From the NCBI GenBank assembly GCA_964342815.1, contig CAYFHS010000010.1, positions 2,534 through 66,533 on the forward strand: 64,000 nt of DNA, given 5' to 3'. The translations under genes were made by a program, and so were the position numbers. The stretch's first letter is position 1. Each line of letters opens with the position of its first letter. Source of the stretch: an uncultured archaeon. GTDB taxonomy: Archaea; Thermoplasmatota; Penumbrarchaeia; JASLWR01. The notes below the pieces were generated by a model, which worked only from the letters and a program-made list of their open reading frames with translations, did no database searches and was not told the DNA's origin. This document shows positions 46,497 through 64,000 of this stretch, piece by piece.

Positions 46497-49400
46497 TTAC
46501 TCTGCGAGATACCCCTGCGCTCCACAGGAGCTGCAGGTGACGATGGTGGGCCTCTCAATGGTGGTCACAGGATTCATTGAACTGCAGATGTGACACTGGA
46601 TCGACTGGAGGGGTGCTGCACCTGCCGCTTGTCCGGGAAGAGGTGGAGGCAATGGCGGGACCTGAGGGGGTACCGATGGTACCTGAAGCGGAACCGGCGG
46701 TGCAGCGGGCTGCTCGAATCCCGTTGTTAATCCCGGGATCGTTTCTCCCAACCCCGGTGCTCCCGTTGTATCCGGTATTAGAGGGGCCGAGGGATCCAAT
46801 GAACCTATATCCGGTTGAAGTCCCGCAGGTTGAACCGGGGGGAATGTCCCAGGTTCCATGGGTGCAGGGGGAAGTGCCATGAGATTGAGGTCCTGGACAC
46901 CCTGGTCGGTTGTCATTGTGGGAAGTAAGTAATCAGGTTGAATAGGCGGTGCCTGGAGACCGGCTGGTTGCTGCTGTGGAAATGGAGCGATCCCAGGAAC
47001 CGTAGATGAAGGGCCGGCGGGCCAGCCCATCTGACCGGTTTGATCAGTGAATGTTTGCGAGTGCATGGGGAGGATAGGCATTCCTTGGGCACGTCCCGGA
47101 GGCGGAAATCCTCCCGGAACTGCATTCTGAGAGCCATAAGGAGGTACCATGGTTCCCTGCCAACCACCGCCACTTGTTTGGTATTGGCCCTGCGATTGTG
47201 GAGGGAGGGCCGTGGGTGAATACATGGGATGGTGGAAATCCCTATCCCCCACTGGATATGGAAACTCCGGTGGAAATTGCTGAGAAGGAAGTGTTTCGTC
47301 AGTCTTTTTATCTTTCTTCCTGCGGCCAATCACTATTATCAAGACGACCATTGCCAGTATGATGATGCCTATAACGATAAAGACCCACCAGTACGTTGAG
47401 AGAAGCCCTTCATCGCGGGTATTCTTTGCTTTCCGGTCATTGATTTCCGAATCGTAAGTTGCTGTCATCTCAGGGGTAGCATCGGAGGGATCATTGGGAT
47501 CGAGGCCGTTCATTTTCTCCCACCAGTCCGGAAGCTTATCTCCGTCGCTGTCCGTGGTATCACCCCATTGCTCTTCAGCCTCTTTTCCCGTGGGTTTTGG
47601 CGTGATCTCGATCTCCAGCTTCACGCTTTCATTGAAACCGAAACCGTCATCCACATGAAGATAAACCAGATACTTGCCTGCCTGGTCCAGTACCGCCTGG
47701 GTTTCCATATTGTGACCTTTGAAAACGATCTTTTTGCTGGTCTTCCCCTTTATCACCCAGTAATAGCCAAGCTCGTCCTCTTCGTTATCTGTGGTCCCTT
47801 CAGCACTCAAACGAATTGTCGAGCCCTCCACGAAGGTCTCATCATCATAGGGTGCGTCGATCACCACGGCAGGTGGTGAGTTGATCCATACCTGGTTCGC
47901 CTCAGACATGGCAAAACCATTCCCAACGGCATCCTTGGCTCGCCATTTTATATAGTTTTCACGACCCGGTTCGAACTCTATATCCATCAATATTATCAGG
48001 TTCTCCTTGACCACGTTATTGTTGATAATGGTCCAGTTAGTGAAAAGTTCCTCATCGTCACCCCACGCAGAAATGGAATACTCCACGGTCTTTCCGTCCA
48101 CACCGCTGCCGCCCATATCATTGATTGTGATACCTGCGGATACGGTAGTTTCTGTGGATATCTCATCATCCGGCATCGGCTCGGAGAAGGTCACCGGCGT
48201 AAGGTCCACCTTCACCGCCCGCTTTTCGCTGTATACCGGTCCGTTACCGGACATGTCGGAAATACGCCACATTACTGCATTACGGTCCCCCTCGTTGAAC
48301 GTCAGCTCCGTCCATGCCCTGACCTTAACGGGATATCCCTCTTCTCCATTCTCCATTATTTCGAATTCCATCCCGTCACTGCTCCAGCCCGAAAACGTTC
48401 CCTCACCGTTCTTCCGGTAGGAGTAAGCAATACTATCGGTATCCAGGCCGTAACCGTCATTATCGTAGAATGTAATTTCTGTCCTTACTACGCTGCTCCC
48501 GAACCATTCATTGCCCATGGGAAAAAGATCGAATGCTATGGGCAGTACGCTGTCTATGTTGAATTGAAAATGCGTGGTGTTGCCCCATTGATCGTACACG
48601 TCGCAGGGTGTTATGTGAAAATACCAGCTTCCCTCTCCAAGCCCTGCAAACTCACCGGCATATGTTCCTGTAATACCGCCGTTGGGGGAATAAAGTACCT
48701 TCGTAGGCTCGGTGAGAGGAGTGCTGTCCACAGTATACGAATATCCTTTGATACCCGTTATCTCATGAGGCGGTTCCCAGGAGAAGACCGGGAGAGTGTT
48801 GTTGTAATAAATCGCCGGATCCGGATGGGTGGATGATGAAATCATGACTTCGTCCGGCCCTATGAGATCGAAATAGATGGTATCGTTGAAATCTTCGGAG
48901 ACGATCCCCGCATGATCCCGAAACCTCACTCGTATTATTTTCAGTCCGTCGGTGGGAGTGAGTGCTATCCTCTTTTCTCCCTTGTATTCCTCCCAGGGCC
49001 CGACGTTTCCACGATCCCCTATGATCTGCATGTCCGCTATTCCGCTGCCATTATCCGAGGCATTGATTACGATGTCCACTAGCTGCTCATTCACCGAGAG
49101 CGCTCCCTCTTCTATTGTTATATTGCCCACAGGCTTTGTCACGTCTATCATCAGTTTCTTTACCATGGAATAATTGCTCGAAGCATGATATGCATCTCTG
49201 GTACGAACACGCCAGTAGTACACTCCGTCCTTCAGCTCATCCTGGACCGTATGTTCCGTAAAAGGGGGATCGGATGAATTCACCCATGATGTGTTGTAGA
49301 CTTGGGAGATCAGTTCTTGATCGTAGTATATTTCCACAAGATATTCAGATTGTATGTCGTTCTTATCTGGATCGGTGAAGTTCCATTCCAGTACGGGCTG

Positions 49401-50612
49401 ACGTGTACCCTGCCAAATATGGGATGGAGGTCCGCTTGTTTCCGGATCGCTCACCAGATCGTATTCGATTATTACCTTTTCGACGTAAGGCTGAACATCC
49501 TCATCGTTGGTGCTGAAGGTGGCATTCCACATCAGGTGGGACCCGCGGTTGCGGAAAACATGGTTCGTCCCGTTCTGCATGGTTACCCAGTTTACTCCGT
49601 CCACGGTCATGTTGTAAATTATATTGGTACCCTGGGGGCTGTACTCGTACCAGGTTATCCTCGCAGCCCCTATAGTGGGCCATTTCATATAGAGCGGATT
49701 TGACTGAATTGTGCCGTATTTCGAGGAGCTTGCGGTAACGTGGTATCCTATGAATCCTTTGTAGTTATGATTGGAACTGCCGTCCGACGAGGTCCCCGCT
49801 CCATTGTACTGGACGCTGCCGTGGCAGGGATGGTTCTCCACCATGTGCGCCCGCGTATTGATGCCGAACAGATAAGGATTCAAGGGCCTGGCGCCGTTCT
49901 GCCGGCAGTAGGTATAGGCTTGTCTCTCGGAGATAGTCCCGTAATCCTTGTAAAAATAGAGCTTGCCGTTCACCACCTTGCTGTCGCCGAACTGTCCCAA
50001 TCCCGGCGTATCTCCGTTGGCGTAGGCCAGCACGCAGTAATGGCGCTCGTTCTTGTTCCTGGTGTTAACACTGTTCCACCTGTTAGTGCTGGTATATGCA
50101 GTGTTTGCGTCCCTATCCCCCACCCATCTCTCATGCTGTTCGTAGGGTGCGTTGTACCCGTAGTGGTTAAAATCAGGCGCTCCCATGAACTGGGCGCCGT
50201 ACATGTTGGCCATTTCCTCCGCCTCGTCCCAGGTCATCAGACCAAAATTAAAAGTGAACCACTGGGACCGGTCCCCGCATCCTCCGTTGACTGTAGCATC
50301 GTACTTGAATTTCATCGTATTATGGGAATTTCCCGAGAGGACTGCTCTTCCGTTGAAAGTATCCACAAGGCACGAGCTGTTCTCCCGGTTGATGAAGGTC
50401 CTGTTGTTAAAGTCCTCGATTATGACATTCCCGTAGCGAGTATCCGTCTCTGATTCCTCGGGCCGGTCCAAATTGAGAACGACAACTTTGGAATTCGTCT
50501 CCGCTCCATTGTCGATACCAGAATACAGGGGAGTCGAAAAGCTCATAAGGATAATAATTCCCACAACAAGAATAACGTTCCGTCGATTGGCTGTATCCCG
50601 AAATATTTCCAT
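46497..50612 (-). CDS. Polymorphic surface protein paralogue 1 (variable domain resembles tandem C-type lectin-like modules)
   Basis: Signal/TM, RYG..IEDFNN motif, variable insert, conserved FnIII/Ig/PKD scaffold, DSDGDKLPDWWE, TM, Pro-rich tail and C-terminal CxxC-CxxC. Confidence 0.85.
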   Translation of the reverse strand: MEIFRDTANRRNVILVVGIIILMSFSTPLYSGIDNGAETNSKVVVLNLDRPEESETDTRYGNVIIEDFNNRTFINRENSSCLVDTFNGRAVLSGNSHNTMKFKYDATVNGGCGDRSQWFTFNFGLMTWDEAEEMANMYGAQFMGAPDFNHYGYNAPYEQHERWVGDRDANTAYTSTNRWNSVNTRNKNERHYCVLAYANGDTPGLGQFGDSKVVNGKLYFYKDYGTISERQAYTYCRQNGARPLNPYLFGINTRAHMVENHPCHGSVQYNGAGTSSDGSSNHNYKGFIGYHVTASSSKYGTIQSNPLYMKWPTIGAARITWYEYSPQGTNIIYNMTVDGVNWVTMQNGTNHVFRNRGSHLMWNATFSTNDEDVQPYVEKVIIEYDLVSDPETSGPPSHIWQGTRQPVLEWNFTDPDKNDIQSEYLVEIYYDQELISQVYNTSWVNSSDPPFTEHTVQDELKDGVYYWRVRTRDAYHASSNYSMVKKLMIDVTKPVGNITIEEGALSVNEQLVDIVINASDNGSGIADMQIIGDRGNVGPWEEYKGEKRIALTPTDGLKIIRVRFRDHAGIVSEDFNDTIYFDLIGPDEVMISSSTHPDPAIYYNNTLPVFSWEPPHEITGIKGYSYTVDSTPLTEPTKVLYSPNGGITGTYAGEFAGLGEGSWYFHITPCDVYDQWGNTTHFQFNIDSVLPIAFDLFPMGNEWFGSSVVRTEITFYDNDGYGLDTDSIAYSYRKNGEGTFSGWSSDGMEFEIMENGEEGYPVKVRAWTELTFNEGDRNAVMWRISDMSGNGPVYSEKRAVKVDLTPVTFSEPMPDDEISTETTVSAGITINDMGGSGVDGKTVEYSISAWGDDEELFTNWTIINNNVVKENLIILMDIEFEPGRENYIKWRAKDAVGNGFAMSEANQVWINSPPAVVIDAPYDDETFVEGSTIRLSAEGTTDNEEDELGYYWVIKGKTSKKIVFKGHNMETQAVLDQAGKYLVYLHVDDGFGFNESVKLEIEITPKPTGKEAEEQWGDTTDSDGDKLPDWWEKMNGLDPNDPSDATPEMTATYDSEINDRKAKNTRDEGLLSTYWWVFIVIGIIILAMVVLIIVIGRRKKDKKTDETLPSQQFPPEFPYPVGDRDFHHPMYSPTALPPQSQGQYQTSGGGWQGTMVPPYGSQNAVPGGFPPPGRAQGMPILPMHSQTFTDQTGQMGWPAGPSSTVPGIAPFPQQQPAGLQAPPIQPDYLLPTMTTDQGVQDLNLMALPPAPMEPGTFPPVQPAGLQPDIGSLDPSAPLIPDTTGAPGLGETIPGLTTGFEQPAAPPVPLQVPSVPPQVPPLPPPLPGQAAGAAPLQSIQCHICSSMNPVTTIERPTIVTCSSCGAQGYLAE

Positions 50613-50799
50613 TACCGTATCACCATTCCGGATTAATTTTCCATTTATTGAGAAAAGTTCTGATGTCCGTTAGTATTTGAAAAGATGGGTCATATAGAGA
50701 CCTTCATCATAATTATTTATTACCCCGAAAAAATCATGAATTATCCACAATTTATTGGGCAAACAGAATTGTCTCTTGAAGAGCGGCTGTACGCAAAGA

Positions 50800-53700
50800 T
50801 CACCCTGAGATATACCCCTGGGCACTGCAGACCGGGCATGTGATCACCGTCGGTCTTTCATTTGTTGTGACCTGATTCATGGCCCCGCAGGAATGACATT
50901 GCACGGATTGTGGTTGAACTGGCACCTCCGCCGCAGGCGGGGGAGGGGATATAGGTTGTTCTGTGGGGGGAAGCGGGGGTAACGTAGCGGTATCGAAAAG
51001 GTCGTCTATTGATGGTGGGCCCGCAGCCGGCGGTGCAGCCGGTTCGGGAATTGCAAAGAGGTCCTGCACGCTCAATTGAGGCTCGGAAACCGGAGGAACT
51101 GCCGCTTCAACAGGGAATGGATCCGGTGCGATAAAAGCCGTACCGGCAGAAGGCACGAATGCCTGGGCTGCCGCTTGCGTCGGTTCCGCCTGGGACATGG
51201 GGAGATCGTCCGGAGCTGGGGGAAGCGCCATGAGATTGAGATCCTGCGTGCCTTGGTCCGTGCTAATGGGCGGAAGGGTGTAGCCAGGTAGCACCTGTTG
51301 TGGACTGACATTTTGTTGGTACTGGGGCGGATTTGGCTCCTGGCTTCCCAATGAAGGCGCGGGGGCTGTGGGTGAATACGCCATTGAGGTCTGTGTATGC
51401 ATGGGCAGAGCCGGTCTTTGCTGTTGAAAGGTCTGGGGAAGAAATCCACTGACGCCTGGAGATTGAATTCCCCCTGTGTTCCATCCACTTCTCACACCAG
51501 AGGGGTATTGACCCTGAGCTTGGTAAGTTTGGGGTCCCGCCGGGTAACCGGAGTGGTGAAAATCCCTGCCTCCCGCGGGATAAGGTCGCTCGGTGGGATA
51601 ATGCGGTACCGGAACTTTCCTTTTTTTCTTTTTCCGTCTCCTCCTGGCAAGAACTATGATGCCAATGATCATGATCAATATTATGCAACCGATGATAACC
51701 AGAACCCACCAGTACCTTGATAGAAGGTTTTCTCCGGAGGACGCCCCCATCTTGCCTTCATCAATTACATTTCCGTATTCCTTTTTTTCATCGGGTGTGG
51801 CATCATTCGGATTATTTGGGTCCAGCCCATTTTCGATCTCCCACCAGTCCGGGAGCCCGTCGCCGTCGCTGTCAACTACCTCATCAGGATCATCGGGGCC
51901 TTCGTCCCCGAGGGTTTTGGGCAGCACCTCAATGTTAATCTTCAAACTCTCGTTGAATCCATGACCATCATCCACGTAGAGATAGACTACGTATCTCCCT
52001 TCGTTTTCAAGAAAGGTCTTCAACTCCATACCGGAACCTTTGAAGAAGGTTTTTTTACTGGATTTTCCCTTTATTACCCAGCTGTAGTTTAGTTCGTCGC
52101 CCTCGTTATCCTTGCTACCCGTCGCATTCAGGCTAATGACGGCATTTACCTGGAACGTTTCATCATCGTAGGGGCTCTCCATAACGGGTACCGGCGGAGA
52201 GTTTACCCAAATTCGATAGGCATCGGAGCTGCTGGATGGATTCCCCACGGCATCTCTGGCCCGCCATTTGATGTAATTATTTTTACCTGGTTCGAATTCT
52301 ATATCCAGAAATACGTCCATGGTCTCCTTCACCATATTGCTGTTCAAAGCCGTCCAGTTGATAAAATATTTATCGTCGCCCCCCCCCCATTTGGATATGG
52401 AATATTCCACGGTCTTTCCGTCCACACCGCTTCCACCAATATCGCCGATGGAGATGCCGCAAGATACGTAGTTTTCGTTGGAAACATCGTCCTCTCCAGG
52501 AACGGGTGCGGAGAATACCACAGGTGTGAGGTCCACTTTCAGCAAGAGCATTTCGCTCTCAACCGGGCCGTTGCCTGCGAGGTCGGTTATACGCCATCTT
52601 ACGGCATTCTCACTTCCTTCGCTCAATTCGATATAGACCCACGCCCGGACCTGCGCTGGATTTTTCCCGGCAGATTCTTTCAAAACCTCGAATTCCATCT
52701 TTTCAGCAGTCCATTGTGAGAACCGTCCCTCCCCGCTTTTTCTGTATGCGTATTGAATACTTTCGGTATCCAGGCCGACCCCTTCAACATCTTCGAAGAC
52801 CACACTGGTACGTATGGTCGTCTCGTTGAACCAATTACCCTTTTCGGGGCTTAATTCATAGAAAATGGGTTGGGCGCTGTCGATATTGAAACGGAAATGA
52901 GAAGTATTACCCCACTGGTCATAGATGTCCGCGGTAGTTATGTGAAAATACCAGGTTCCCTGGGCAAGCCCGGAGAATTCACCGGCAAATGTCCCGGTAA
53001 GATGGTTATTCGGGGTATAGAGCACCTTCGTTGGTTGGGTCAGAGGCGAGCTGTCCACCATGTAGGAATAACCTTTTATTCCAGCCACTTCGTCCGGCGG
53101 TTCCCATGAGAATACGGGGAGAGTGCTGTTGTAGTACATGTCAGGATCAGGATGAGTGGGCGAGGTGATCATCACTTCCCCGGGTCCCTTGAGATCGAAA
53201 TAGATGGTATCGTTGAATCTCTGGGAAATGATGCCTGCGTGGTCCATGAACCTGACCTCTATCATTTTCAGACCGTCCGTGGGTGTAAGCGCGATCCTCT
53301 TTTCCGTCTTGTATTCCTCCCATGGCCCCTCCTCCCCCTTGTCTCCGATTATCTGCATGTCAGCTATTCCGCTTCCGTTGTCGGAAGCGTTGATCTTCAG
53401 GTTCACCAGCTGTTCGTTTACGGTGAGCGCGCCTTCTTCTATGGTGATATTTCCCTGAGGTTCCGTGATATCGATCATAATCTTCTTCAAGGCGGAAAAA
53501 TTGCTCCAGGCGTGATAAACATCCTTCGTTTTTACCCGCCAGTAGTACACGCCGTCCTCAAGTTGCTCACTCACGGTATGCTCAGAGTCCGTGGAATTGA
53601 CCCAGGACGAATTGTATACGAGATCATTCATTTCCTGGTCACTGTAAAGCTCAACAATGAAATCGGATTGGTGATCTCCCTTGTCGGGGTCTGTGAAGTT

Positions 53701-54873: not shown

Positions 54874-54967
54874 CTACGATTACACGGTATACAATATATT
54901 TTATGTTTTCTCTTTATGTTTCCACCGATAATACAAAGTCATGCTTGGGAAGAAGATTCTGGAATAT

Positions 54968-57900
54968 CTATTCTGTTACTAATCCCTGGGCTCCGCATGA
55001 GGTGCAGGTAACAATGGTGGGTCTTTCGGCGGTGGTCAAAAGATTCATAGCTGTGCAGACATGACATTGTACGTTTGAGAATACCGATTGGCCGCTTGCA
55101 GGAGGCTCCTGCCCGAGAGGCTGCGGTGCTTCCGGCGGCAGTGGTGACGGTGCGGCAGGTATGCCTGGAAGATCATCGTAGGAACTGGCTTCACTTCCCA
55201 CAGAGGTGATTGGTGGAGGAACCGCGGGGGGTACAATGTTCGGTGAAGATGGTGGCATGGGTGACGGTGCAGCGGTTTCCGGTGCAGGATAATTTCCGGA
55301 GGCGACCGCTGATGGATCTATTTCCGGTGCCGGCGTCGGGTATTGTGTTGCTATTTCAGGTGTGACATCAGGGAACGGTATGGCAGGTGATTGTATTTCC
55401 TGAGATGACGGTGGTACGGGGTAGGGTGCTACTATTTCAGGTACAGGGACTGCAGTTGACGGGTTATGGTCCGCGATGGGGTCATTGCCCATGGTACCAT
55501 ATGTAACATCTTCGTACTCGGGGGCAGGTGGCAGTGCCAAGAGGTTCATATCCTGTAATCCCTGATCGGTGGTAAAAGAGGGAAGTAGATAATTGGGCGC
55601 GGAACTTGATGCTGTTTGAGCGCTGGGCGGCAAGGTATGTAGGCCGGGACTTATGGGCTGTTGGCTCCAGCTTCCCGGCATCCCTGCTTGATTGGGAGAG
55701 CCCGAGTAAGGAGCCCCCGGACCCGGAGGTAGTGCTAATGGTGGATTGGCGCCGGCCCCATACTGAGGGTTGCGGCCCCCGTACATTCCACCATATCCCG
55801 GTGTACCCATGGGAGCGTACCCGGAAGGTGCAAAGCCCAGGTTCTGACCCTGCGGGTATGGATGGAATGATTTCGGGGGCGGGATCTGGGTCGGGATTTG
55901 TTTTTTCTCCTTTCTTTTCTTACTTGCGGCAAGCAGGATAACGGCAATCACCGATATCAATATGAGAGATCCGATGATGATCAACAGCCACCAGTATTTT
56001 GCCAGCAGGCCATCTTCAGCGGCGTTATTGGACTTCTTTTCATTGAGTTCATTCTCATAGGCATCCATTTTTTCCTGGCTAGCATCATTAGGATCGTTGG
56101 GATCAAGGCCATTCTCTATCTCCCACCAATCGGGCAGCAAATCCCCGTCGCTGTCAATGGTATCGTCCCAAACGTTCCCATCATCGTCATCTTCATCCAC
56201 GGGTCTCGGCACGATCTCTATGCCCAGTTTAACACTCTCATTGAAACCCAGACCGTCATCCACGTAAAGGTAAACTAAAAATCTGCCTGGCTGGTCCAAC
56301 ACCGCCTGACAGCCGAGACCATGTCCCTTGAACACAGTTTTCTTGCTGGTCTTCCCCTTTATGATCCAGAAATAGCTTAGTTCATCCCCTTCATTATCTT
56401 CGCTCCCGGAGGCGTTCAGCTGTATGATGGAACCTTCCTTAAATGTCTCTCCGTCATAAGGTTTCATGATTGACGGAACCGGTGGCGAGTTGATCCATAT
56501 GCGGTAGGTGTCAGAGATTGAATAGCCGTTCCCCACGGCATCCTTCGCGCGCCACCGGATATAATTATCCTTTCCGGGCTCGAACTGTATTTCCAATGAA
56601 ACGTCGATGGACTCCTTCACCATGTGGTTACTGATGGCGGTCCAGTTTTGAAAATATTTTTTATCCTCTCCGTACTTGGATACGGCATACTCTATTGTCT
56701 TCCCGTCAACACCGCTGCCTCCGGCATCTGAGACGGTTATGCCGCAGATCAGCATGTCTTCAAGAAATATTTCCTCGGTCTCCGGGACCGGCATGGAGAA
56801 GGTCACCGGGCTCTTGTCAACCTTAACGGACCATTTCTCGCTCAGAGCCGGACCATTGCCGGCCAGATCGCTTATTCTCCACCTTATTGTATTATCGCTG
56901 CCCTCCGACAGGGGGATGTTCACGTAAGCCCGAACTTTCACAGGATTATTCTCGGTACTCTTCTCCAGTATCTCGAATTCCATTCCGTCATTGGTCCAGG
57001 ATGAGAACGAGTTTCCCCCGGATATCCTGTATGAATATTTGATGCTCTCCAGATCCAGACCAAAACTATCGATATCAGTAAAGACGGCCTCTGCCAGCGC
57101 ATTGCCGGAGTTGTACCAAACAGTATTGTCGGGCCCCATTTCGGAGATCAGAGGGATAGAGGTATCGATATTGAACCGGAAATGGCTGGTATTACCCCAC
57201 TGATCGTATATATCGGAGGCACAGATATGGAAAAACCAAGTGCCGTCGGTGAGACCGGAAAATTCCCCTGCAAATGTCCCGGTAATTTCGCTGTTCGGGG
57301 TATAGAGAACCTTTGTGGGTTCCGTAAGGGGTGAGGGATCCACCAAGTAAGAGTATCCTTTGATGCCCCCCACCTCGCGGGGAGGGTCCCATGAAAAGAC
57401 CGGAAGCGTGCTGTTATAATACATCTCGGGCGTGGGATGTGTTGTGGAGCTTACATTGATCTCATCCGGACCCAGCAGGTCAAGATAAATTGTGTCGTTG
57501 AATATTTCCGAAACGATGCTCGCATTGTCCCGAAACCTGACTCCTATAGTTTTCAAGCCGTCCGATGGTACGAGTGAAATCCTCTTTTCTGTCTTGAACT
57601 CTTCCCAAGGGCCATCCTTTCCCCTGTCGTTGATGATCTGCATGTCGGCAATACCGCTGCCGTTATCAGAGGCATTGATGCGGATATCTACCAACTGCTC
57701 GTTCACAGTAAGGGCACCTTCCTCGATAGTTATGTTTCTCACCGGTTTGGTCACATCGATCATGATCTTTTTTAAGGCTGAAAAATTGCTGGACGCATGA
57801 TATATATCCCTTGTCCGCACCCGCCAGAAATACGTTCCATCTTCCAGGTCATCCTCAACAACATGTTTTGGGGTAGTGGAGTTTTTCCACGAGCTGTTGA

Positions 57901-59188
57901 AGACCATGTCAGTTCCCTCATCGTCGCTGTACATTTCAACGAAATACTCCGATTGATGGTCGCCGGGATCTGGATCGGTGAAGTTCCATTCAAGGGTGGG
58001 GGTGCTGCTACCCTGCCACTCGTGGGAATTCGGGGCGAATGGTTCCGGGTCGTCCACAAGGTCTATCTCTATCACCACCTTGTCTATGTAAGGCGTCACC
58101 TCTTCATCCTTGGTGGTGAGAGTGGCATTCCACATCAACTGGGAACCGATGTGCGTAAACACATGGTTGGTATGATTGGCTACAGTATCCCAGTGCTCCC
58201 CGTCAGCTGTAATATTGTAGATTATGTCCGTCCCTGGTGGTTTGTGTTCATACCAGGTCAACCGAACGGCTCCAACAGCCTTCAGAGTGTCATGCAGAAC
58301 TTTGGATTGCACGTGAGACCGGTTGTTCATAATTCCTGTGGCTCCGAAGCGTATGTCGTCGATACCCACCACGTCGCCGCCGTTGTTAGGTATGTTCCAG
58401 ACCACCGATCGTATGGAATTGACCCCGCCGTCAGTAACTCCCATGAATACCATGTTGTTCCTCTGATAGTTATTGTTTGGCGCTGTGGCCGTTGCGATGA
58501 GATTTCCATTTCCCTGCACACCGGAGTAGCCTTTAAGTCTCATACCTCCTCCTTGAAACTTGTCAACCACCATGAACCCGACTCCCGACTGGGCGTTGCC
58601 AAAGGTCATGGTAAATTGAGAATTCGGCCCTATGTTTGTCAGCATTCCCGATGCTTGATGCGGTCCCTCGCCCTGAATGGCCCCACCCTGGTTTCCTTGG
58701 CCCGGCCCTGCGCTATTCTGGACGTTACCGCTGGTGGAGGTCATAGAACTTATACCTATCCCTGCATAGAAGTTTGCCTGCAATGCGCCGTTTGGATGGT
58801 TGTTGAAATTGGCCTGGGTATTGATGAACATACTTCCCATAGCGGTATTGAAGTTTGCAAGACTGACATGACCGGTTGGGGAGCCTCCAGCGCCTCCTGC
58901 TCCGGATAGAAGTATTCTGCCCTGGAACGTGTCCATCCCAGCGGTGGAATTGCTGAAATCTATAAAATCTACATTCTTGAAATCATCTATGAAGACCTTG
59001 CCGTACCTTGTTTTTGACGTATCGGATTCACTGGGAAAAACATTGGAAAGACCGGCAAAACACTCTACACTGCTTTGATCCCATCTGTATGAAACACGGA
59101 GAATGGATGTGAACGAGAGAAAAGAAACTAGGGAAAGGATCAGCACAATTCGCAGAGTACTTGTTTTATCGTTCATCTCATGAGACAT
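54968..59188 (-). CDS. Polymorphic surface protein paralogue 3 (jelly-roll-like variable domain)
   Basis: Same scaffold. Insert has GVGFMVVD...FMGV.D...I.SV.W...D.VGIDDIRFG. Start uncertain (59176-59239). Confidence 0.85.
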   Translation of the reverse strand: MSHEMNDKTSTLRIVLILSLVSFLSFTSILRVSYRWDQSSVECFAGLSNVFPSESDTSKTRYGKVFIDDFKNVDFIDFSNSTAGMDTFQGRILLSGAGGAGGSPTGHVSLANFNTAMGSMFINTQANFNNHPNGALQANFYAGIGISSMTSTSGNVQNSAGPGQGNQGGAIQGEGPHQASGMLTNIGPNSQFTMTFGNAQSGVGFMVVDKFQGGGMRLKGYSGVQGNGNLIATATAPNNNYQRNNMVFMGVTDGGVNSIRSVVWNIPNNGGDVVGIDDIRFGATGIMNNRSHVQSKVLHDTLKAVGAVRLTWYEHKPPGTDIIYNITADGEHWDTVANHTNHVFTHIGSQLMWNATLTTKDEEVTPYIDKVVIEIDLVDDPEPFAPNSHEWQGSSTPTLEWNFTDPDPGDHQSEYFVEMYSDDEGTDMVFNSSWKNSTTPKHVVEDDLEDGTYFWRVRTRDIYHASSNFSALKKIMIDVTKPVRNITIEEGALTVNEQLVDIRINASDNGSGIADMQIINDRGKDGPWEEFKTEKRISLVPSDGLKTIGVRFRDNASIVSEIFNDTIYLDLLGPDEINVSSTTHPTPEMYYNSTLPVFSWDPPREVGGIKGYSYLVDPSPLTEPTKVLYTPNSEITGTFAGEFSGLTDGTWFFHICASDIYDQWGNTSHFRFNIDTSIPLISEMGPDNTVWYNSGNALAEAVFTDIDSFGLDLESIKYSYRISGGNSFSSWTNDGMEFEILEKSTENNPVKVRAYVNIPLSEGSDNTIRWRISDLAGNGPALSEKWSVKVDKSPVTFSMPVPETEEIFLEDMLICGITVSDAGGSGVDGKTIEYAVSKYGEDKKYFQNWTAISNHMVKESIDVSLEIQFEPGKDNYIRWRAKDAVGNGYSISDTYRIWINSPPVPSIMKPYDGETFKEGSIIQLNASGSEDNEGDELSYFWIIKGKTSKKTVFKGHGLGCQAVLDQPGRFLVYLYVDDGLGFNESVKLGIEIVPRPVDEDDDDGNVWDDTIDSDGDLLPDWWEIENGLDPNDPNDASQEKMDAYENELNEKKSNNAAEDGLLAKYWWLLIIIGSLILISVIAVILLAASKKRKEKKQIPTQIPPPKSFHPYPQGQNLGFAPSGYAPMGTPGYGGMYGGRNPQYGAGANPPLALPPGPGAPYSGSPNQAGMPGSWSQQPISPGLHTLPPSAQTASSSAPNYLLPSFTTDQGLQDMNLLALPPAPEYEDVTYGTMGNDPIADHNPSTAVPVPEIVAPYPVPPSSQEIQSPAIPFPDVTPEIATQYPTPAPEIDPSAVASGNYPAPETAAPSPMPPSSPNIVPPAVPPPITSVGSEASSYDDLPGIPAAPSPLPPEAPQPLGQEPPASGQSVFSNVQCHVCTAMNLLTTAERPTIVTCTSCGAQGLVTE

Positions 59189-59239
59189 GTGAACCAATAC
59201 CATAATACATGATATACGAAATATTTCATATTTTCGCAA

Positions 59240-62200
59240 TTATTCTGCAAGGTATCCCTGTGCGCTACAGTTAGTACATGTTATTGTTGTGGGCCGCTCG
59301 GTTGTCTCGACCTGGTTCATGGAACCGCAGGCATGGCATTGAACGCCGGGCAGTTCGGTTTTTTCCTCTACGGGAGACTCAGCAGGCATTTCGGATTCTG
59401 TAGTTCCCTCTGTCGGCAGGGAGGAAAATATATCCTCAAGGGGGCCAGGAACGCTTTCCTCCGTTTCCGGTGCCGGTGATATGGGTCCGTCCACGGCGGG
59501 CTGGTCCTGTGTGTTATCCATTCCGGCTTCATTTACCAAGCCGCTTTCGGCATCGACCTGATCAATTGGGGCCGCTTCCACGCCGGTAGCAGGAGGAAGC
59601 GCCTTAAGATCGAGGTTCGGAGTGCCCAGTCCGGAGGTAGACACCGGAAGAGAATATTCAGGGGAATTTTCAGATGTTTCCTCCTGTTGAGCTCCCATTT
59701 CCGGTGCGATCAATGAAAGGTCCAGGGGAGGTAGTGTCAGGTCCATGAGCGGCTGTAGTTCCATGGGACTTTCCGTGCTCATGGGGAGTGCGGGTCGATG
59801 AGGATCCGGGACGGTACCTGCCGTAGGTGGAAGCTGTACCTGTGGATAATTATTAACAGGCGCCCCTCCCGTCCCTCCTCCCCAACCACCACCGGTTCCA
59901 TAGGACGGAGAATATCCGGGTTGAGATTGCAGCGAAGCGTACATCTCGGAATACTGCGGATAGTGAAAGTCCCTGGAACCCATTGGGTACGGATCAGGAG
60001 AGTAACGCTGCTGAGGGGTATATTCCACATTATCCACCTCTTCTTCATTTTTCCCCTTTTTCACAGTTATTACGATTATCCCAATTATCATCAGCACTAC
60101 GAGAACGCCTACAATGAGCAGGATCCACCAGTAACTCGACAGAAAATCGTCTTCCACAGCTGTCGCACCCTGATGTTTTGCAAGTTCACTGCGATAGAGA
60201 TCTTTCTGTGGATCGGTGGCGTCGTTGGGGTTACCCAGGTTCAGGCCCTTGAGTTCCTCCCACCAGTCCGGGAGCCCGTCGCCGTCGCTGTCCGTTTTAT
60301 CCTCCCACCGCTTCGTCACTTCGTTTCCTGTGGGTTGGGGGATAACCTCGATTGTCAGCTTTATGCTCTCGTTGAAGCCGAGGCCGTCATTCACATACAG
60401 GTAAACCAGATATTTGCCAGTTTTGTCAAGTGTGGTATTGGCATCTGGCCCCCAGGCTTTGAAAACGATCTTTTTGCTGGTCTTCCCCTTTAACTCCCAG
60501 TAGTAGCTGAGCTCGTCCCCCTCGTTATCCTCCGTCCCTATAGCGCTGAGGGTGACTGTGGCGCCATCTTCGAATTTCTGATCGTCGTAAGGTAAGGCAA
60601 TTACCGGGGAGGGAGCCGAATTGACCCAGATACGGACAACTTCGGACACGGCGTATCCGTTCCCAACAGCATCTTTCGCACGCCACATGATATAATTGTC
60701 CCGCCCTGGTTCGAACCCAATGTCCATCAGAACTACGAGGATCTCATTTACCATGTTGTTGTTCGCATTTGTCCAGTTGACAAAATATTTCGAGTCGTTA
60801 CCAAATGCAGAGATAGAATATTCCACAGTCTTTCCATCCACACCGCTTCCGCCTGCATCGCTGATTGTCAGGCCGACGGAAACCATGGTATCTATGGATA
60901 CAATATCATTGGCAGGAAGCGGATCTGAGAAGGTCACCGGGGTGAGGTCCACCTTGATGGTAAGCCTATCGCTCTCAACGGGGCCGTTTCCGGATATATC
61001 GTTTACGCGCCATAATACAGCGTTCCGGTCACCCTCCGCGAGACCCAGCTGAACCCATGCCCTGACCTTCACGGGATTATCATCGATACCTTCCTCCAAT
61101 ATCTCGAATTCCATTTCGTCGGACGTCCATCCCGAGAATGTTCCCTCGCCGCTCTTCCGGTACGAATATTCTATGGTATTGGTGTCCAGACCGAAACCTT
61201 CAGCATCGGCAAAGGTGGCCTCCACAAGGATGTCGGTGCGCCTGAACCATTCACCGTCCGTCGGAACAAATCCGGAGATAACAGGGGCGATGCTGTCTAT
61301 GTTGAACCGGAAATGAGTGGTGTTGCCCCATTGGTCGTAAATGTCACAGGGAGTTATATGAAAATACCACGTCCCCTCGCTGAGCCCGGCAAACTCGCCG
61401 GGATAGGTTCCCGTAAGATCGTTGTTCTGGTTGTAAAGCACTTTAGGTGGTTCTGTGACAGGCGTGCTGTCCACGGTATACGTATATCCCTTTATACCGG
61501 TCACTTCGTACGGCGGTTCCCAGGAGAAGACCGGGAGGGTGCTGTTATAATACACCATGGGATCCGGATGAGTTGGAGAGGTCACTTCGATATCGAAAGG
61601 TCCCTTGAGATCGAAATAGATAGTATCGTTATAATCCTCCGAGACGATCCCCGCGTTATCCCGAAACCGAATAATTATCTTCTTCAACCCGTCGAGAGGG
61701 GTGAGGGCGAAACGTTTCTCTGTGGCGAATTCCTCCCAGGGACCTTCGTTCCCCCGATCACCTATGATCTGCATATCCGCAACGCCCGAAGCGTTGTCGA
61801 AGGCATGGATGGCCAGGTCGACCAGTTTATCGTTTACCGAGGAAATGCCTTCATGTATGGTTATATTGCCCACGGGGCGGGTCACATCGATCTTGAAACT
61901 TTTTTTGTAGGAGTAATTGCTGGCGACATTATAGTTGTCCTTTGTTCGCGCCCTCCAGAAGTATACGCCATCCACCAATGAATCCGATATGGTATGTTCC
62001 GTAAAGGAGGAATTCACCCATGAGGAATTGTATATTTGATTGCTCAACTGTTCATCGTTGTAAATCTCCACCAAGTATTCTGATTGGTAATCGCCCTTAT
62101 CCGGATCAGTGAAGTTCCACTCCAGTTTCGGGGTCTGGGTTCCCTGCCATATATGAGATTGGGGCAGGTGGGGCTGAGGATTGCTGAATAGGTCATACTC

Positions 62201-63412
62201 GATAATGATCTTGTCTATGTACGGGCTGATATTCTTGTCATCGGTCTTTATTGTAGCATTCCATCTCAATGCCGATCCGCGGTGCTCTAGAATGTATGAC
62301 GTTTCGTTCTCAACGGTTATCCAGTTCTTCCCGTCAACACTTAACTTGTATATGATTTCCGTACCCTGGGGAAGATGCTCGAACCAGGTGGCTTTCACAG
62401 CTCCTATGGTCTTGGCCTCATCATACAGTATTTTCGATTGTATATAGGTTATATTCGTGGGAGGCTCGATATCGTTACCGAGGTAGGCGTTGCCGTCTGA
62501 TATTTTGTAACGGTGTGGGTTGTTGTTGTTGGCAGAAATACAATATTCCTCCCCATTGAAAGCCATGTTGTAGATGCTTTCCTGAACGTTGAACTGTCCC
62601 ACCAAAGCGCCATTGGCCGGGTTGATGATGCCAACATTCTGAATATTATTGTTATAGCCCCCCACATATAATAAACCATTAGCAAAGGCAAGACCCCCGT
62701 ACACCCTGGGATTGCCGTTTATATTGAAATTTCTGACATGCTGCCCGTTATCCTTTCGGAGAACCCTCACTTGGTTCTGGTTATAAACCATTGCATAAAC
62801 GTAATTGTCATCGCAGCAAACGCCTCCGGTGGTGCTTCCCATGTGATACGACCATATCTGGTTGTTGCCGCGGTCGGACCATTTATAAACTCTGTCATTT
62901 CCCCAATTTGCAGTATAGTATGTCCCATCCTTATCTCCCCAGAGCTGCATAATATTTCCGGTTCCGCTGTTGAAGGAGCCCAGATAGTTGTTATTAATGT
63001 CGTACCGGTAGATCGTGCTCCCGGCCCACTGGGGATACCAGTACTCATTGTATTTAGGACTGAATCCGCCACCGTGTGATCGTGTGTTCTGGTTCATCCT
63101 GCCTTTATAGGTAGGCGGGATTATGGGGCTGCTACCCCACAGCATAACCCGACCGTCCATTGTGCGAATTGAAGCTGTAGTATTGGAGCTGTCGATATAC
63201 GTCAGATTGTTGAAATCCTCAACAATTCGATTGCCGTAACGAGTTTTTGACTCGGAGATTTCAGGAAGCTCTGGTCGCAAAACCCCGGATTTCTTTGTCT
63301 CTTCCACAGATGATGTGGAGTGAAATACAATGGAGATCATCAGAATGCAGATACCGAAAGATATTAGTTTTGAAAAACCCATTTTTTTCTCAATCAAGAA
63401 ATTTATTGGCAT
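59240..63412 (-). CDS. Polymorphic surface protein paralogue 4 (beta-propeller-like variable domain)
   Basis: Same scaffold. Insert has ~40-aa repeats (IYRYD..GSF, VYKWS, VRVL..G..VRNF, GLAFANG, NMAFNG). Confidence 0.85.
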   Translation of the reverse strand: MPINFLIEKKMGFSKLISFGICILMISIVFHSTSSVEETKKSGVLRPELPEISESKTRYGNRIVEDFNNLTYIDSSNTTASIRTMDGRVMLWGSSPIIPPTYKGRMNQNTRSHGGGFSPKYNEYWYPQWAGSTIYRYDINNNYLGSFNSGTGNIMQLWGDKDGTYYTANWGNDRVYKWSDRGNNQIWSYHMGSTTGGVCCDDNYVYAMVYNQNQVRVLRKDNGQHVRNFNINGNPRVYGGLAFANGLLYVGGYNNNIQNVGIINPANGALVGQFNVQESIYNMAFNGEEYCISANNNNPHRYKISDGNAYLGNDIEPPTNITYIQSKILYDEAKTIGAVKATWFEHLPQGTEIIYKLSVDGKNWITVENETSYILEHRGSALRWNATIKTDDKNISPYIDKIIIEYDLFSNPQPHLPQSHIWQGTQTPKLEWNFTDPDKGDYQSEYLVEIYNDEQLSNQIYNSSWVNSSFTEHTISDSLVDGVYFWRARTKDNYNVASNYSYKKSFKIDVTRPVGNITIHEGISSVNDKLVDLAIHAFDNASGVADMQIIGDRGNEGPWEEFATEKRFALTPLDGLKKIIIRFRDNAGIVSEDYNDTIYFDLKGPFDIEVTSPTHPDPMVYYNSTLPVFSWEPPYEVTGIKGYTYTVDSTPVTEPPKVLYNQNNDLTGTYPGEFAGLSEGTWYFHITPCDIYDQWGNTTHFRFNIDSIAPVISGFVPTDGEWFRRTDILVEATFADAEGFGLDTNTIEYSYRKSGEGTFSGWTSDEMEFEILEEGIDDNPVKVRAWVQLGLAEGDRNAVLWRVNDISGNGPVESDRLTIKVDLTPVTFSDPLPANDIVSIDTMVSVGLTISDAGGSGVDGKTVEYSISAFGNDSKYFVNWTNANNNMVNEILVVLMDIGFEPGRDNYIMWRAKDAVGNGYAVSEVVRIWVNSAPSPVIALPYDDQKFEDGATVTLSAIGTEDNEGDELSYYWELKGKTSKKIVFKAWGPDANTTLDKTGKYLVYLYVNDGLGFNESIKLTIEVIPQPTGNEVTKRWEDKTDSDGDGLPDWWEELKGLNLGNPNDATDPQKDLYRSELAKHQGATAVEDDFLSSYWWILLIVGVLVVLMIIGIIVITVKKGKNEEEVDNVEYTPQQRYSPDPYPMGSRDFHYPQYSEMYASLQSQPGYSPSYGTGGGWGGGTGGAPVNNYPQVQLPPTAGTVPDPHRPALPMSTESPMELQPLMDLTLPPLDLSLIAPEMGAQQEETSENSPEYSLPVSTSGLGTPNLDLKALPPATGVEAAPIDQVDAESGLVNEAGMDNTQDQPAVDGPISPAPETEESVPGPLEDIFSSLPTEGTTESEMPAESPVEEKTELPGVQCHACGSMNQVETTERPTTITCTNCSAQGYLAE

Positions 63413-63692
63413 ATGCTACCACCTTGTTATACACGTATAAATTATCGTAAAAATAAAGATTACGATATAGCTTATTAAGCGGGAAATCGAATCCCAATTA
63501 AGAAATACTCTATCTTTTTTCCTACATTTAAATTTTTATATTCCTACTTCGAATTTTTTAGATTTCTAAAATTCACTATTATTTACACGACATCAAAGCA
63601 AATAAATCAAGAACCTCATGTCAGCGACAAAACATTCTTGGGGCTGTCCCTAAATAGAATCGATCCTTATGTCAAGAGACAAAAAGGGTAAT

Positions 63693-64000
63693 TTAAACGG
63701 CGAATCCCTGCACGCCACAGGAAGAACAGATCACAACCGCCGGTCGTACGTTCGTGGTCACCTGATTCACGGCCCCGCAGGCGTGACAGGGGATGCTCTG
63801 GGGCGATGGAGTTGGCGGAATCTCCGGTGCTGGGGGAGACTGGGTGGGAAGGGGCGGTTCAGCAGGGGGCAGGGGTAGCTCACCGCTTTGACGTTGACCG
63901 AATATATCATTCAGCAGGTCGTCCGCGCTTTTTGCGGTGGAAATCAACGGTTGCGGTGAACGGGGAACCACTTGCGGTACAGCTGGAGATGAAGACGGAA
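63693..64000 (-). CDS. Polymorphic surface protein paralogue 5, C-terminal fragment (runs off the window)
   Basis: Frame is open to the window edge. Pro-rich segment ends in CHACGAVNQVTTNVRPAVVICSSCGVQG, matching the other four C-termini. Confidence 0.8.
   Translation of the reverse strand, partial: PSSSPAVPQVVPRSPQPLISTAKSADDLLNDIFGQRQSGELPLPPAEPPLPTQSPPAPEIPPTPSPQSIPCHACGAVNQVTTNVRPAVVICSSCGVQGFAV

Follow-up and report, generated by a model that had tools for sequence, protein, structure and literature searches.

A family of large membrane proteins from an uncultured archaeon of the phylum Thermoplasmatota carries different head domains at one fixed site near the N-terminus. The stretch of DNA examined here, called the window throughout, comprises 64 000 nucleotides (nt) of GenBank contig CAYFHS010000010.1 (assembly GCA_964342815.1), corresponding to positions 2534–66533 of contig C10 in the genome designated G000 (4.35 Mb, 116 contigs, 88.9% complete); coordinates are numbered within the window unless a contig is given. 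It holds four complete genes of the family and the end of a fifth. We consider it likely that these belong to a closed panel of eight heads, displayed at the cell surface on a split domain and a shared stalk, the latter being homogenized by gene conversion. As judged from sequence, the heads are a closed, old and strongly constrained set; all eight types appear to have been in place already before three genera split and to have been under purifying selection since. The overall pattern fits stalks homogenized around stationary heads, rather than heads moving between stalks. This corrects the original prediction, made from the window alone, of a diversity-generating repertoire: the system is not a diversity-generating one.

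The tandem array and its two boundaries

The complete genes, all on the minus strand, are A1 (46497..50612; protein P0001, 1371 amino acids, aa), A2 (50800..54873; P0002, 1357 aa), A3 (54968..59239; P0003, 1423 aa as listed) and A4 (59240..63412; P0004, 1390 aa), and they carry heads T1, T2, T3 and T4, respectively. Of A5 only the 3' end, encoding a Pro-rich tail and a zinc ribbon, lies in the window (63693..64000, minus strand); the whole gene occupies C10:66226–70386 and its head is outside the window. That four complete genes and a fifth tail lie head-to-tail on this strand, as originally described, is borne out by the open reading frames (ORFs) and their translations (1357–1423 aa). The tandem array extends to seven copies, A5–A7 being situated further along C10, and three dispersed copies (A8 on contig C3, A9 on C1 and A10 on C16) bring the number in the genome to ten.

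A four-way alignment, together with sliding identity over the ten paralogs, confirms that identity falls and recovers at the same two boundaries. Averaged over pairs, the window genes have an identity of 0.44 in the segment preceding the head, the N-flank (P0001 residues 68–97), 0.01–0.17 over residues 98–303, and 0.58 from residue 304 onwards, where the segment that we term the C-part begins. Heads delimited by hidden Markov models (HMMs) lie within about 10 nt of the insert positions first proposed. Relatedness of the inserts, which would have reduced the pattern to ordinary divergence, was looked for and not found: the four window heads show no mutual similarity by BLASTP at E ≤ 0.1, and every pair among T1–T4 stays below 4% in profile–profile comparison.

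A closed and conserved set of heads

The full architecture is present in G001, a genome of the same genus, and in G002 and G003 of the same family; more distant genomes of the class match only stalk residues ~570–1100. Across these four genomes, both flanks with an insert of 181–254 aa between them occur in 34 of 34 complete N-termini, none being without an insert, and all 34 members fall into eight head types. The types were defined by BLASTP and profile–profile comparison, ahead of all tree building. T4 and T6 alone show a relationship (94%, E = 9e-8), the remaining 27 of the 28 pairs being below 4% in profile–profile comparison. When 5.8 billion protein clusters were searched by word index, 69 matched at E ≤ 1e-30, and ~60 of these belong to this subfamily. 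All 50 database members that possess both flanks belong to the eight types (T4, 17; T6, 11; T1, T2, T3, T5 and T9, four each; T10, two) and none is of a new type; the other 18 of the 68 fetched matches are without full flanks and were left unclassified. The members are named in the databases only as ‘hypothetical protein’ or ‘PKD domain-containing protein [Candidatus Thermoplasmatota archaeon]’, and in the literature search neither this archaeal family nor olfactomedin domains of archaea nor nested domains in flagellins turned up, which supports the earlier remark that no archaeal family with this layout had been described.

Within these proteins, conservation is highest in the heads. Heads of the same type are 0.72–0.82 identical across the three genera, compared with 0.50–0.57 for the scaffolds of the same gene pairs, and within the genus the corresponding values are 0.89–0.98 and 0.80–0.85. 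The A2 head is 91% identical to that of its G001 ortholog, the A3 head is 98% identical to its counterpart in G001 and 82% to that in G003, and an ortholog of A1 with the identical head type T1 was found in four of four genomes. The tree of T6 heads consists of two subtypes, each with one ortholog per genus. Over six G000–G001 ortholog pairs, the mean ratio of nonsynonymous to synonymous substitution rates (dN/dS) is 0.04 for the head, 0.04 for the N-flank, 0.06 for the C-part, 0.10 for the stalk and 0.23 for the transmembrane (TM) segment plus tail, values that are rough because dS between these two genomes is ~1.

The head order T1-T2-T3-T4 is kept in G000 and G001, beside the same flanking gene. 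Head synteny across genera was inspected and is not claimed, the orders being different in G002 and G003. The array of G001 comprises four copies on one contig, followed by DNA that is placed ~35 kb further along in G000 (C10:114951–121810), and the G001 ortholog of A7 is found at the start of another contig (loci L032, L046 and L033); this difference from C10 is due either to a rearrangement that broke within the array or to faulty assembly.

Probable concerted evolution of the stalk

The history recorded in the scaffolds differs from that of the heads. A careful maximum-likelihood tree was built from 33 scaffolds, each taken from the start of the C-part (720 aa); a further row, of half length, was excluded. 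On this tree, genus labels require three changes (minimum two) and head labels 15 (minimum seven). Scaffolds bearing T1 are monophyletic in none of 200 bootstrap trees, and the approximately unbiased (AU) test rejects a scaffold clade both for T1 (p = 1.6e-7, log-likelihood difference 426) and for T3 (p = 0.0011). Scaffold identity averages 0.568 within a genus for pairs with different heads (n = 177), and between genera 0.491 for the same head (n = 70) and 0.501 for different heads (n = 278); the excess within a genus is greatest from about residue 480 on. The stalks of paralogs are thus closer within a genome than those of orthologs between genomes, while the heads keep their orthology. That the stalk trees group by genus and not by head argues for concerted evolution of the stalk by gene conversion. 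A single old lineage, that of the dispersed gene A10, which lies on a separate contig, and locus L042 of G003, retains cross-genus orthology in both scaffold and head, and it follows that the family is older than the split of the genera.

Comparisons of individual genes are in line with this. A6 and its G001 ortholog are 75–89% identical in DNA over residues 1–450, where A4 and A6 are only 47–71% identical; over residues ~450–1100 all pairs among A4, A6 and the G001 ortholog are at ~0.73–0.89, and in the TM segment and tail they fall to 0.47–0.78. A1 (head T1) and A7 (head T4) are mutual nearest DNA neighbours (73–86%) over residues 534–1064 and not before, and they form a clade with 100/100 support over residues 531–1021 despite their different heads. 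Among the ten paralogs there are 73 exact shared stretches of at least 17 nt (the longest 36 nt), of which 60 lie in the stalk, seven in the TM segment plus tail, five in the C-part, one in a head and none in the N-flank. This distribution does not support the proposal that recombination takes place in the conserved flanks.

The mechanism that we favour can be put as follows. After a signal peptide, a split domain of ~130 aa would carry one complete head of 181–254 aa and hold it at the distal tip of an Ig/FN3/PKD-like stalk of ~630 aa. Gene conversion among the mostly tandem copies would homogenize the stalk within each genome, and the non-homologous heads, with the signal peptide, the N-flank and largely the C-part, would escape conversion and so stay orthologous. 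Each head may bind a different extracellular ligand, be it a glycan, a particle or a cell surface; the array would then be a fixed panel of adhesins or receptors, which the zinc-ribbon tail might tie to a common intracellular partner.

Two other histories of the family have to be considered. If stalks actively exchanged their heads through recombination in the flanks, so that the recognition repertoire varied, this would explain why unrelated heads lie between two conserved flanks at one site, why head and scaffold trees conflict across genera, why A1 and A7 share a stalk and not a head, and why array content differs between the two congeneric genomes. We nevertheless regard such exchange as highly improbable. 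Only eight types exist, in all 34 members of the four genomes and with no novelty among the 50 from the databases; each is 72–98% identical across genomes, above the value for its stalk; dN/dS of the heads is as low as 0.04, and two genomes share the order of the first four. The head trees have one ortholog per genus per subtype. Furthermore, the N-flank contributes 0 and the C-part five of the 73 exact shared stretches, and the transitions in identity fall ~130–230 residues downstream of the head. The spacers separating the window genes are 0–187 bp, so there is no room for silent cassettes, and no recombinase or reverse transcriptase was detected among the seven upstream ORFs scanned, the 3' side of the array being beyond that scan. 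Of the earlier idea of a common stalk that displays different heads, the fixed site and the unrelated heads therefore stand, and swapping and diversification do not. It had also been suggested that stable co-inheritance of each head with its scaffold, with congruent trees, would speak against swapping; the heads are indeed conserved and their order is kept in congeneric genomes, but the trees are incongruent between genera.

Alternatively, each genus might have expanded one scaffold separately and recruited the same heads repeatedly to the same site, in which case the clustering of scaffolds by genus would reflect recent duplication instead of gene conversion. The heads are autonomous enough for this, T1 being found in bacteria and OLF-type or T4-like heads on the stalks of a second subfamily (~30% identity; see below), and the insertion site takes many domains in distant relatives. 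However, at least eight head types or subtypes would have to have entered one and the same site independently, in as many as three genera. Same-type heads are 72–82% identical across genera, compared with ~30% to the nearest copies in another context within the genome, the N-flank and signal-peptide regions travel with the head (as in A6 and its G001 ortholog), and the A10 lineage retains cross-genus orthology in scaffold and head alike. Independent re-insertion of eight heads per genus is far less parsimonious than concerted evolution, and hardly any credence can be given to it.

Concerted evolution around stationary heads is itself not free of difficulty, and a number of points weigh against it, beginning with the roughness of the dN/dS values mentioned above. 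Over residues 302–530, A1 and A7 form a clade in 14% of bootstraps, yet this clade is not rejected (AU p = 0.48), and the breakpoint of the A1/A7 mosaic is consequently not sharply established. Three scaffold rows are of deviant amino acid composition. All four genomes are metagenome-assembled, with contamination of 2–6% (rounded for the three relatives), and because assemblers can mis-join tandem paralogs, mosaic signals might be created or blurred. A possible chimera, in which the fourth gene of G001 would have arisen by deletion from an A6 head and an A4 stalk, was dropped, the 3' identities being mixed. Logan contigs from four DNA runs were also compared; they are short and of low depth, and most match the window at 99% identity or better. 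The only two joints in them (51876>60266 and 51883>60276) have sides of 20–21 letters inside a conserved motif, the TSP3-like motif described below, and are unreliable.

A probable split domain as the site of insertion

The two flanks look like one Asp-box-type beta-sandwich of ~130 aa, in which two strands would come from the N-flank and seven from the C-part, with the head between them; this had been suspected at the outset and the structural predictions lend it support. In A1 the N-flank, supplying the first strands of the putative sandwich, comprises residues 57–94 (50331..50444; RYGNVIIEDF...GRAVLSG), head T1 has 207 aa (49710..50330), and the C-part, residues 302–392 (49437..49709), contains an Asp-box-like motif (IQS...TW.E..P.GT.I.Y....DG..W...WNAT...IEYDL). 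The corresponding segments of A2 are residues 59–96 (54586..54699), the Gly/Cys-rich head T2 of 186 aa (54028..54585) and residues 283–373 (53755..54027); those of A3 are residues 76–113 (58901..59014), the Gly/Asn-rich head T3 of 196 aa (58313..58900) and residues 310–400 (58040..58312); and those of A4 are residues 56–93 (63134..63247), head T4 of 230 aa (62444..63133), modelled as a five-bladed beta-propeller, and residues 324–414 (62171..62443), for which the model has seven strands. All are on the minus strand and all boundaries are those of HMMs.

Evidence that the two flanks belong together comes from a complex prediction in which the N-flank (47 aa) and the C-part (105 aa) were supplied as separate chains with 33-row alignments of our own making. 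The pair scored 0.62 (median of three runs) and the best of three controls 0.06, with a partner predicted local distance difference test (pLDDT) value of at least 67 and run agreement of at least 84%. The mark of 0.62 is attained by 58 of 80 solved complexes and by two of 110 mismatched pairs, a calibration that is only rough for alignments made in this way. In the predicted complex, the N-flank strand VIIEDF is paired with the last strand of the C-part, KVIIEY, and the interface takes in the two points between which the head is inserted, namely where the N-flank ends and where the C-part starts. For the N-terminal region of A4, an AlphaFold model built on 12 aligned sequences (mean pLDDT 76.4) has the C-part as seven strands with pLDDT ~70–89.

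Distant relatives provide the second line of evidence. Searched against 1.84 billion representatives, the C-part profile matches 901 proteins at E ≤ 1e-3. Of the 137 distant representatives fetched, which are the ones outside the set already in the analysis, 75 have an N-flank-like motif (EDF...D..TTA.WDT..G..L) ahead of the C-part, usually just after the signal peptide. The stretch between the two motifs ranges from 11 to 858 aa (median 399), and in five occurrences it is only 11–13 aa. Inserts could be identified in four of nine representatives scanned, namely LVIVD (P0093, P0099), Kelch (P0096) and BNR-type (P0167) propellers. The Sortilin/BNR matches of P0106, whose two motifs are just 13 aa apart, fall downstream of the C-part. 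A sandwich interrupted after its first strands by a complete domain, and then resumed, is what is found here, as indicated by the flanks in all 34 N-termini, the docking score, the relatives with 11–13 aa and the occurrence of T1, T5 and T6 heads standing alone elsewhere. On sequence grounds, the fixed insertion site is of long standing and belongs to a widespread host domain without a Pfam name.

Other results count against this geometry. In the A4 monomer model the second N-flank strand (model residues 31–43) has a pLDDT below 50 and the first, paired strand reaches ~65–71. The split-sandwich geometry therefore leans on the complex prediction and on the uninterrupted relatives, and we grade the former as supporting binding and not as showing it. 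The C-part also exists as an apparently self-sufficient tandem repeat of 92 aa, and for that reason the N-flank could be a clasp added to a complete sandwich. Comparisons with solved structures are neutral on this point: the C-part profile against all PDB sequences has a best E of 0.13, to unrelated chains, in what is a sequence comparison only, and a VIA search with the whole A4 model gives propeller matches only (model residues 43–258) and is thus silent on the fold class of the sandwich.

The same two motifs occur in giant flagellins. P0074, P0075 and P0076 (1984–2859 aa, with Flagellin_N and Flagellin_C ends) carry, in their centres, tandem N-flanks with a period of ~36 aa (at least 12–14 in P0074 and P0075, five detected in P0076), then a core, and then 9–18 tandem C-parts with a period of ~92 aa. 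The order of the motifs suggests recursively nested split domains; the window proteins, which are not flagellins, have one level only. A broader view would be that the N-flank/C-part unit is a widespread general socket for inserted domains, nested in flagellins and used here for an eight-receptor panel with a TM/zinc-ribbon tail and with stalks kept uniform by gene conversion. This we offer as a tentative generalization that is rather more likely to fail than to hold. If true, the socket takes propellers and other heads of 150–650 aa, in bacteria and in archaea, and an N-flank motif followed by a C-part motif would in any case be a simple sequence rule for finding binding domains in unannotated surface proteins.

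Identity of the heads

The best characterized window head is T4. Its AlphaFold model is a five-bladed beta-propeller in which the head blocks mostly have pLDDT 77–94. The best structural match in Foldseek and VIA searches is bacterial glutaminyl cyclase 3mbr (Z 19.3, root mean square deviation 3.0, 202 residues aligned); the model also aligns with olfactomedin-1 (5amo; Z 15.9, root mean square deviation 3.5, 219 residues), and T4 of A4 has no match to Pfam OLF at E ≤ 10. The related head T6 of A9, outside the window, does pass the gathering threshold of OLF (PF02191; 30.3 bits, threshold 23.9). Head T5 of A5 matches Endostatin (PF06482; E = 6.6e-20, 71.9 bits, cut-off 29.4) and DUF1554 (PF07588; 29.5 bits, cut-off 27.5).

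The remaining heads are less tractable. AlphaFold2, given the A1 N-terminal region and four orthologs, returned a mean pLDDT of 38 and no fold for T1. Pfam at E ≤ 10 has nothing for T1, T2, T9 and T10, and for T3 only a chance-level match (zf-C2H2_assoc, E = 0.61). PDB sequence searches with T1, T2, T3 and C-part profiles likewise gave chance-level matches only. In the ESM Atlas the best values are 0.89 for T1 and 0.82 for T2, below 0.9, and the matches to Lcl_C and Lectin_like are leads only. T1 may carry a C-type-lectin-like motif, an impression that was not confirmed. A domain homologous to T1 forms the last ~200 residues of Cys-rich secreted repeat proteins of bacteria (P0216–P0229; 45–59% identity). 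These have Pfam matches to Dicty_CTDC or Stig1 and no split-domain motifs, and one is named as deltaproteobacterial (from a metagenome-assembled genome). Identity of 45–59% is high across domains of life for an unnamed module.

Topology, tail and possible function

The domain order is the same in each protein: an N-terminal hydrophobic signal, the split domain with its head, the stalk, a TSP3-like motif, one TM segment, the tail and a zinc ribbon. The FnIII/Ig/PKD scaffold, the DSDGD.LPDWWE motif, the single TM segment and the cytoplasmic tail that had been proposed are borne out by alignment, weak Pfam matches and hydropathy. In A1, a type-I membrane protein, the stalk spans residues 393–1020 (47553..49436, minus strand, as are the following; weak Pfam matches to Ig_Rha78A_N and PKD_4), the TSP3-like motif DSDGDKLPDWWE..GLDP.DP.DA residues 1021–1045 (47478..47552; invariant alignment columns), and the TM segment residues 1077–1095 (47328..47384), with GRRKKDKK directly after it. 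The cytoplasmic tail, rich in Pro, Gln and Gly, follows (46500..47327) and ends in the zinc ribbon QCH.C...ERPT.VTC..C.AQG (about 46500–46601).

In general, the stalk is ~630 aa long and its Pfam matches (Ig_Rha78A_N, PKD, Ig/FN3) are weak. In the Pfam scan of the four proteins, PKD is above its cut-off in P0004 only (PF18911, 28.8 bits, cut-off 27; PF00801, 25.6 bits, cut-off 23.5), and P0001, P0002 and P0003 score 16.8–22.7, below the cut-off, at the homologous position. TSP3_bac (PF18884) does not reach its cut-off of 25 bits in that scan, the best being 17.9 bits in P0002; the motif DSDGD.LPDWWE is invariant in the four window genes and is hence called ‘TSP3-like’ only. The ectodomains, of ~1030–1070 aa, have 17–21 N-x-S/T sequons each, and the tails zero or one each. 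The tails are 275–320 aa long and 13–21% Pro, conserve the motif TTDQG.QDLNL.ALPPAP and end CxxC...CxxC. Because the sequons sit in the ectodomain, with few in the tail, and because a basic cluster directly follows the one strong TM segment, the family are probably type-I surface proteins that are N-glycosylated.

A function as adhesins or receptors may be proposed, by analogy, because the heads are of binding types, each head is under purifying selection, and the sequon pattern, the type-I topology and a likeness to RTX adhesins point the same way. The proteins could instead be a structural coat, that is, a glycoprotein layer or glycocalyx of a wall-less archaeon, in which the heads serve packing or protection. 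Many large proteins of the organism share the TM segment and zinc-ribbon tail (32 ORFs, 23 of them at least 900 aa), the ectodomain sequons are dense and the stalk is long and repetitive, all of which such a coat would explain. It is, however, an unlikely account: the heads are in or like binding-type families (olfactomedin-like propellers, endostatin/C-type-lectin-like domains, and LamG in the second subfamily), the strong purifying selection acting on each of the eight heads is easier to reconcile with separate partners than with generic packing, and domains that bud from split domains in bacterial adhesins are ligand-binding (PMC12077191). It counts against the adhesin or receptor proposal that no RNA sequencing run was listed with the window sequence; the DNA is present in marine and seawater metagenomes. 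As adhesins or receptors, the proteins would offer a testable picture of environment sensing by an uncultured marine archaeon, each of the eight heads, borne on an interchangeable stalk with a common cytoplasmic module, being a candidate for binding a distinct ligand.

Relation to known systems

The closest parallel is with the RTX adhesins. In these, ligand-binding domains bud outward from split domains of the Ig-like kind, each with its binding site placed distally, and in AhLap of Aeromonas hydrophila, MpIBP of Marinomonas primoryensis and FrhA of Vibrio cholerae a beta-sandwich is likewise interrupted after the first strand or strands; they too have a long stalk of Ig-like extender domains, and different adhesins have different budding domains (PMC12077191, which cites Graham et al. 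2024, Proteins 92:933). The differences are considerable. RTX adhesins leave the cell by type-I secretion; their C-terminus is an RTX nonapeptide beta-roll with the secretion signal, and a retention domain lies at the N-terminus. The archaeal proteins are anchored by a C-terminal TM segment and zinc-ribbon tail, and no RTX or haemolysin-type match was found in the Pfam scan of the four proteins at E ≤ 0.1; they resemble RTX adhesins in mechanism without belonging to them. The split domain is here N-terminal, distal and single, variation runs across paralogs (eight heads on one stalk type) and not along one giant protein, and no sequence similarity of the C-part to a solved chain was found. It should be noted that binding domains budding from a split domain, and concerted evolution in a tandem family, are already known. 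What is new is the archaeal, TM/zinc-ribbon-anchored form, the eight-head paralog panel with olfactomedin-like and endostatin-like domains, the unnamed and widespread host domain, and the clean separation of conserved heads from a homogenized stalk. The rule of budding from a split domain, known from RTX adhesins, is thereby extended to archaea and to what appears to be another host domain, and the family provides a clean prokaryotic case of segment-specific concerted evolution.

Some heads also resemble domains of animal proteins. Among the metazoan olfactomedin proteins (olfactomedin-1, gliomedin, latrophilin) the comparison is with A9, which passes the OLF threshold, with B7 of the second subfamily, which does so strongly, and with the A4 model, which aligns without a Pfam match; the A5 head, which passes the Endostatin cut-off, recalls the NC1 region of collagens XV and XVIII. 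In contrast to the metazoan proteins, the heads are inserted into a split domain of prokaryotes, outside any coiled-coil or collagen context, and the A4 head is closer to glutaminyl cyclase. Olfactomedin-like and endostatin-like domains are elsewhere typical of the extracellular matrix of animals, and their occurrence in archaea bears on the origin of animal matrix domains.

Among marine archaea, TSP-repeat proteins of the Poseidoniales (Marine Group II) have been interpreted as adhesion factors (PMC6461757), and the window genes resemble them in their membrane-proximal TSP3-like motif. That source gives the presence or absence of annotated thrombospondin genes and, in the passages considered, does not mention a split domain, heads, a zinc-ribbon tail or paralog evolution. 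A parallel with polymorphic toxin or tail-fibre systems had been drawn initially; a conserved scaffold, unrelated terminal or near-terminal modules and tandem members are indeed shared. The likeness does not extend to membership, since the repertoire here is closed and conserved, the variable module is N-proximal and inserted instead of C-terminal, and among the neighbours examined there was neither an orphan cassette nor an immunity gene, a recombinase or an element that generates diversity.

Further observations on the array and its surroundings

The listed TTG start of A3 abuts the A4 stop codon (region 59203–59239). The true start is probably a Met downstream of it, because the N-flank is 12 residues nearer the N-terminus in the G001 ortholog. 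A6 (locus L004, C10:70582–74829) has in the assembly an in-frame TAG at codon 444, where paralogs have Gln, and A7 (L002, C10:75039–79681) has a frameshift in a run of G. The truncated ORFs that result from these disruptions, P0031 and P0009, are recorded on eight and six contigs, respectively, in the protein collection. The G001 orthologs of A6 and A7 are intact, and A6 is still under ortholog-like constraint.

Convergent with A1 lies an ORF of 476 aa (44588–46018, plus strand) with matches to phage tail sheath (PF04984, 43.5 bits; PF17482, 31.8 bits), a homolog of which adjoins the T1 gene in G001 too (82% DNA identity); no further contractile-system genes were found among the seven upstream ORFs scanned. 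A few kilobases from the array, an ORF of 1405 aa (36600–40817, minus strand) encodes an integrin-like surface protein with 14 FG-GAP repeat matches (265.9 bits) and with FN3 (23.9 of 25 bits) and TSP_3 (21.2 of 25 bits) just under the Pfam cut-offs.

The zinc-ribbon tail is not confined to this family. A strict pattern (C..C...P....C..C..G near the end) is found on 32 ORFs of G000, of which 23 reach a length of 900 aa or more; in 24 of the 32 the last 600 aa include a strong hydrophobic segment; examples lie at C3:33290–55174 and C1:139518–175687, and a looser pattern also takes in proteins of up to 7294 aa. The tail looks like a lineage-wide cytoplasmic module of surface proteins. Eight of the genes bearing it form the tandem array of a second subfamily, B (~1350–1470 aa; C1:139518–175672, loci L056 and L057), of which three more copies are on C26 and others elsewhere. 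Subfamily B has a different stalk (CYA.YKPY...) with the same TM segment and zinc-ribbon tail, and its unrelated heads are N-terminal rather than inserted; they include Olfactomedin (B7, 145.2 bits), Laminin_G_3 (74.6 bits) and a T4-like propeller (~30% identity).

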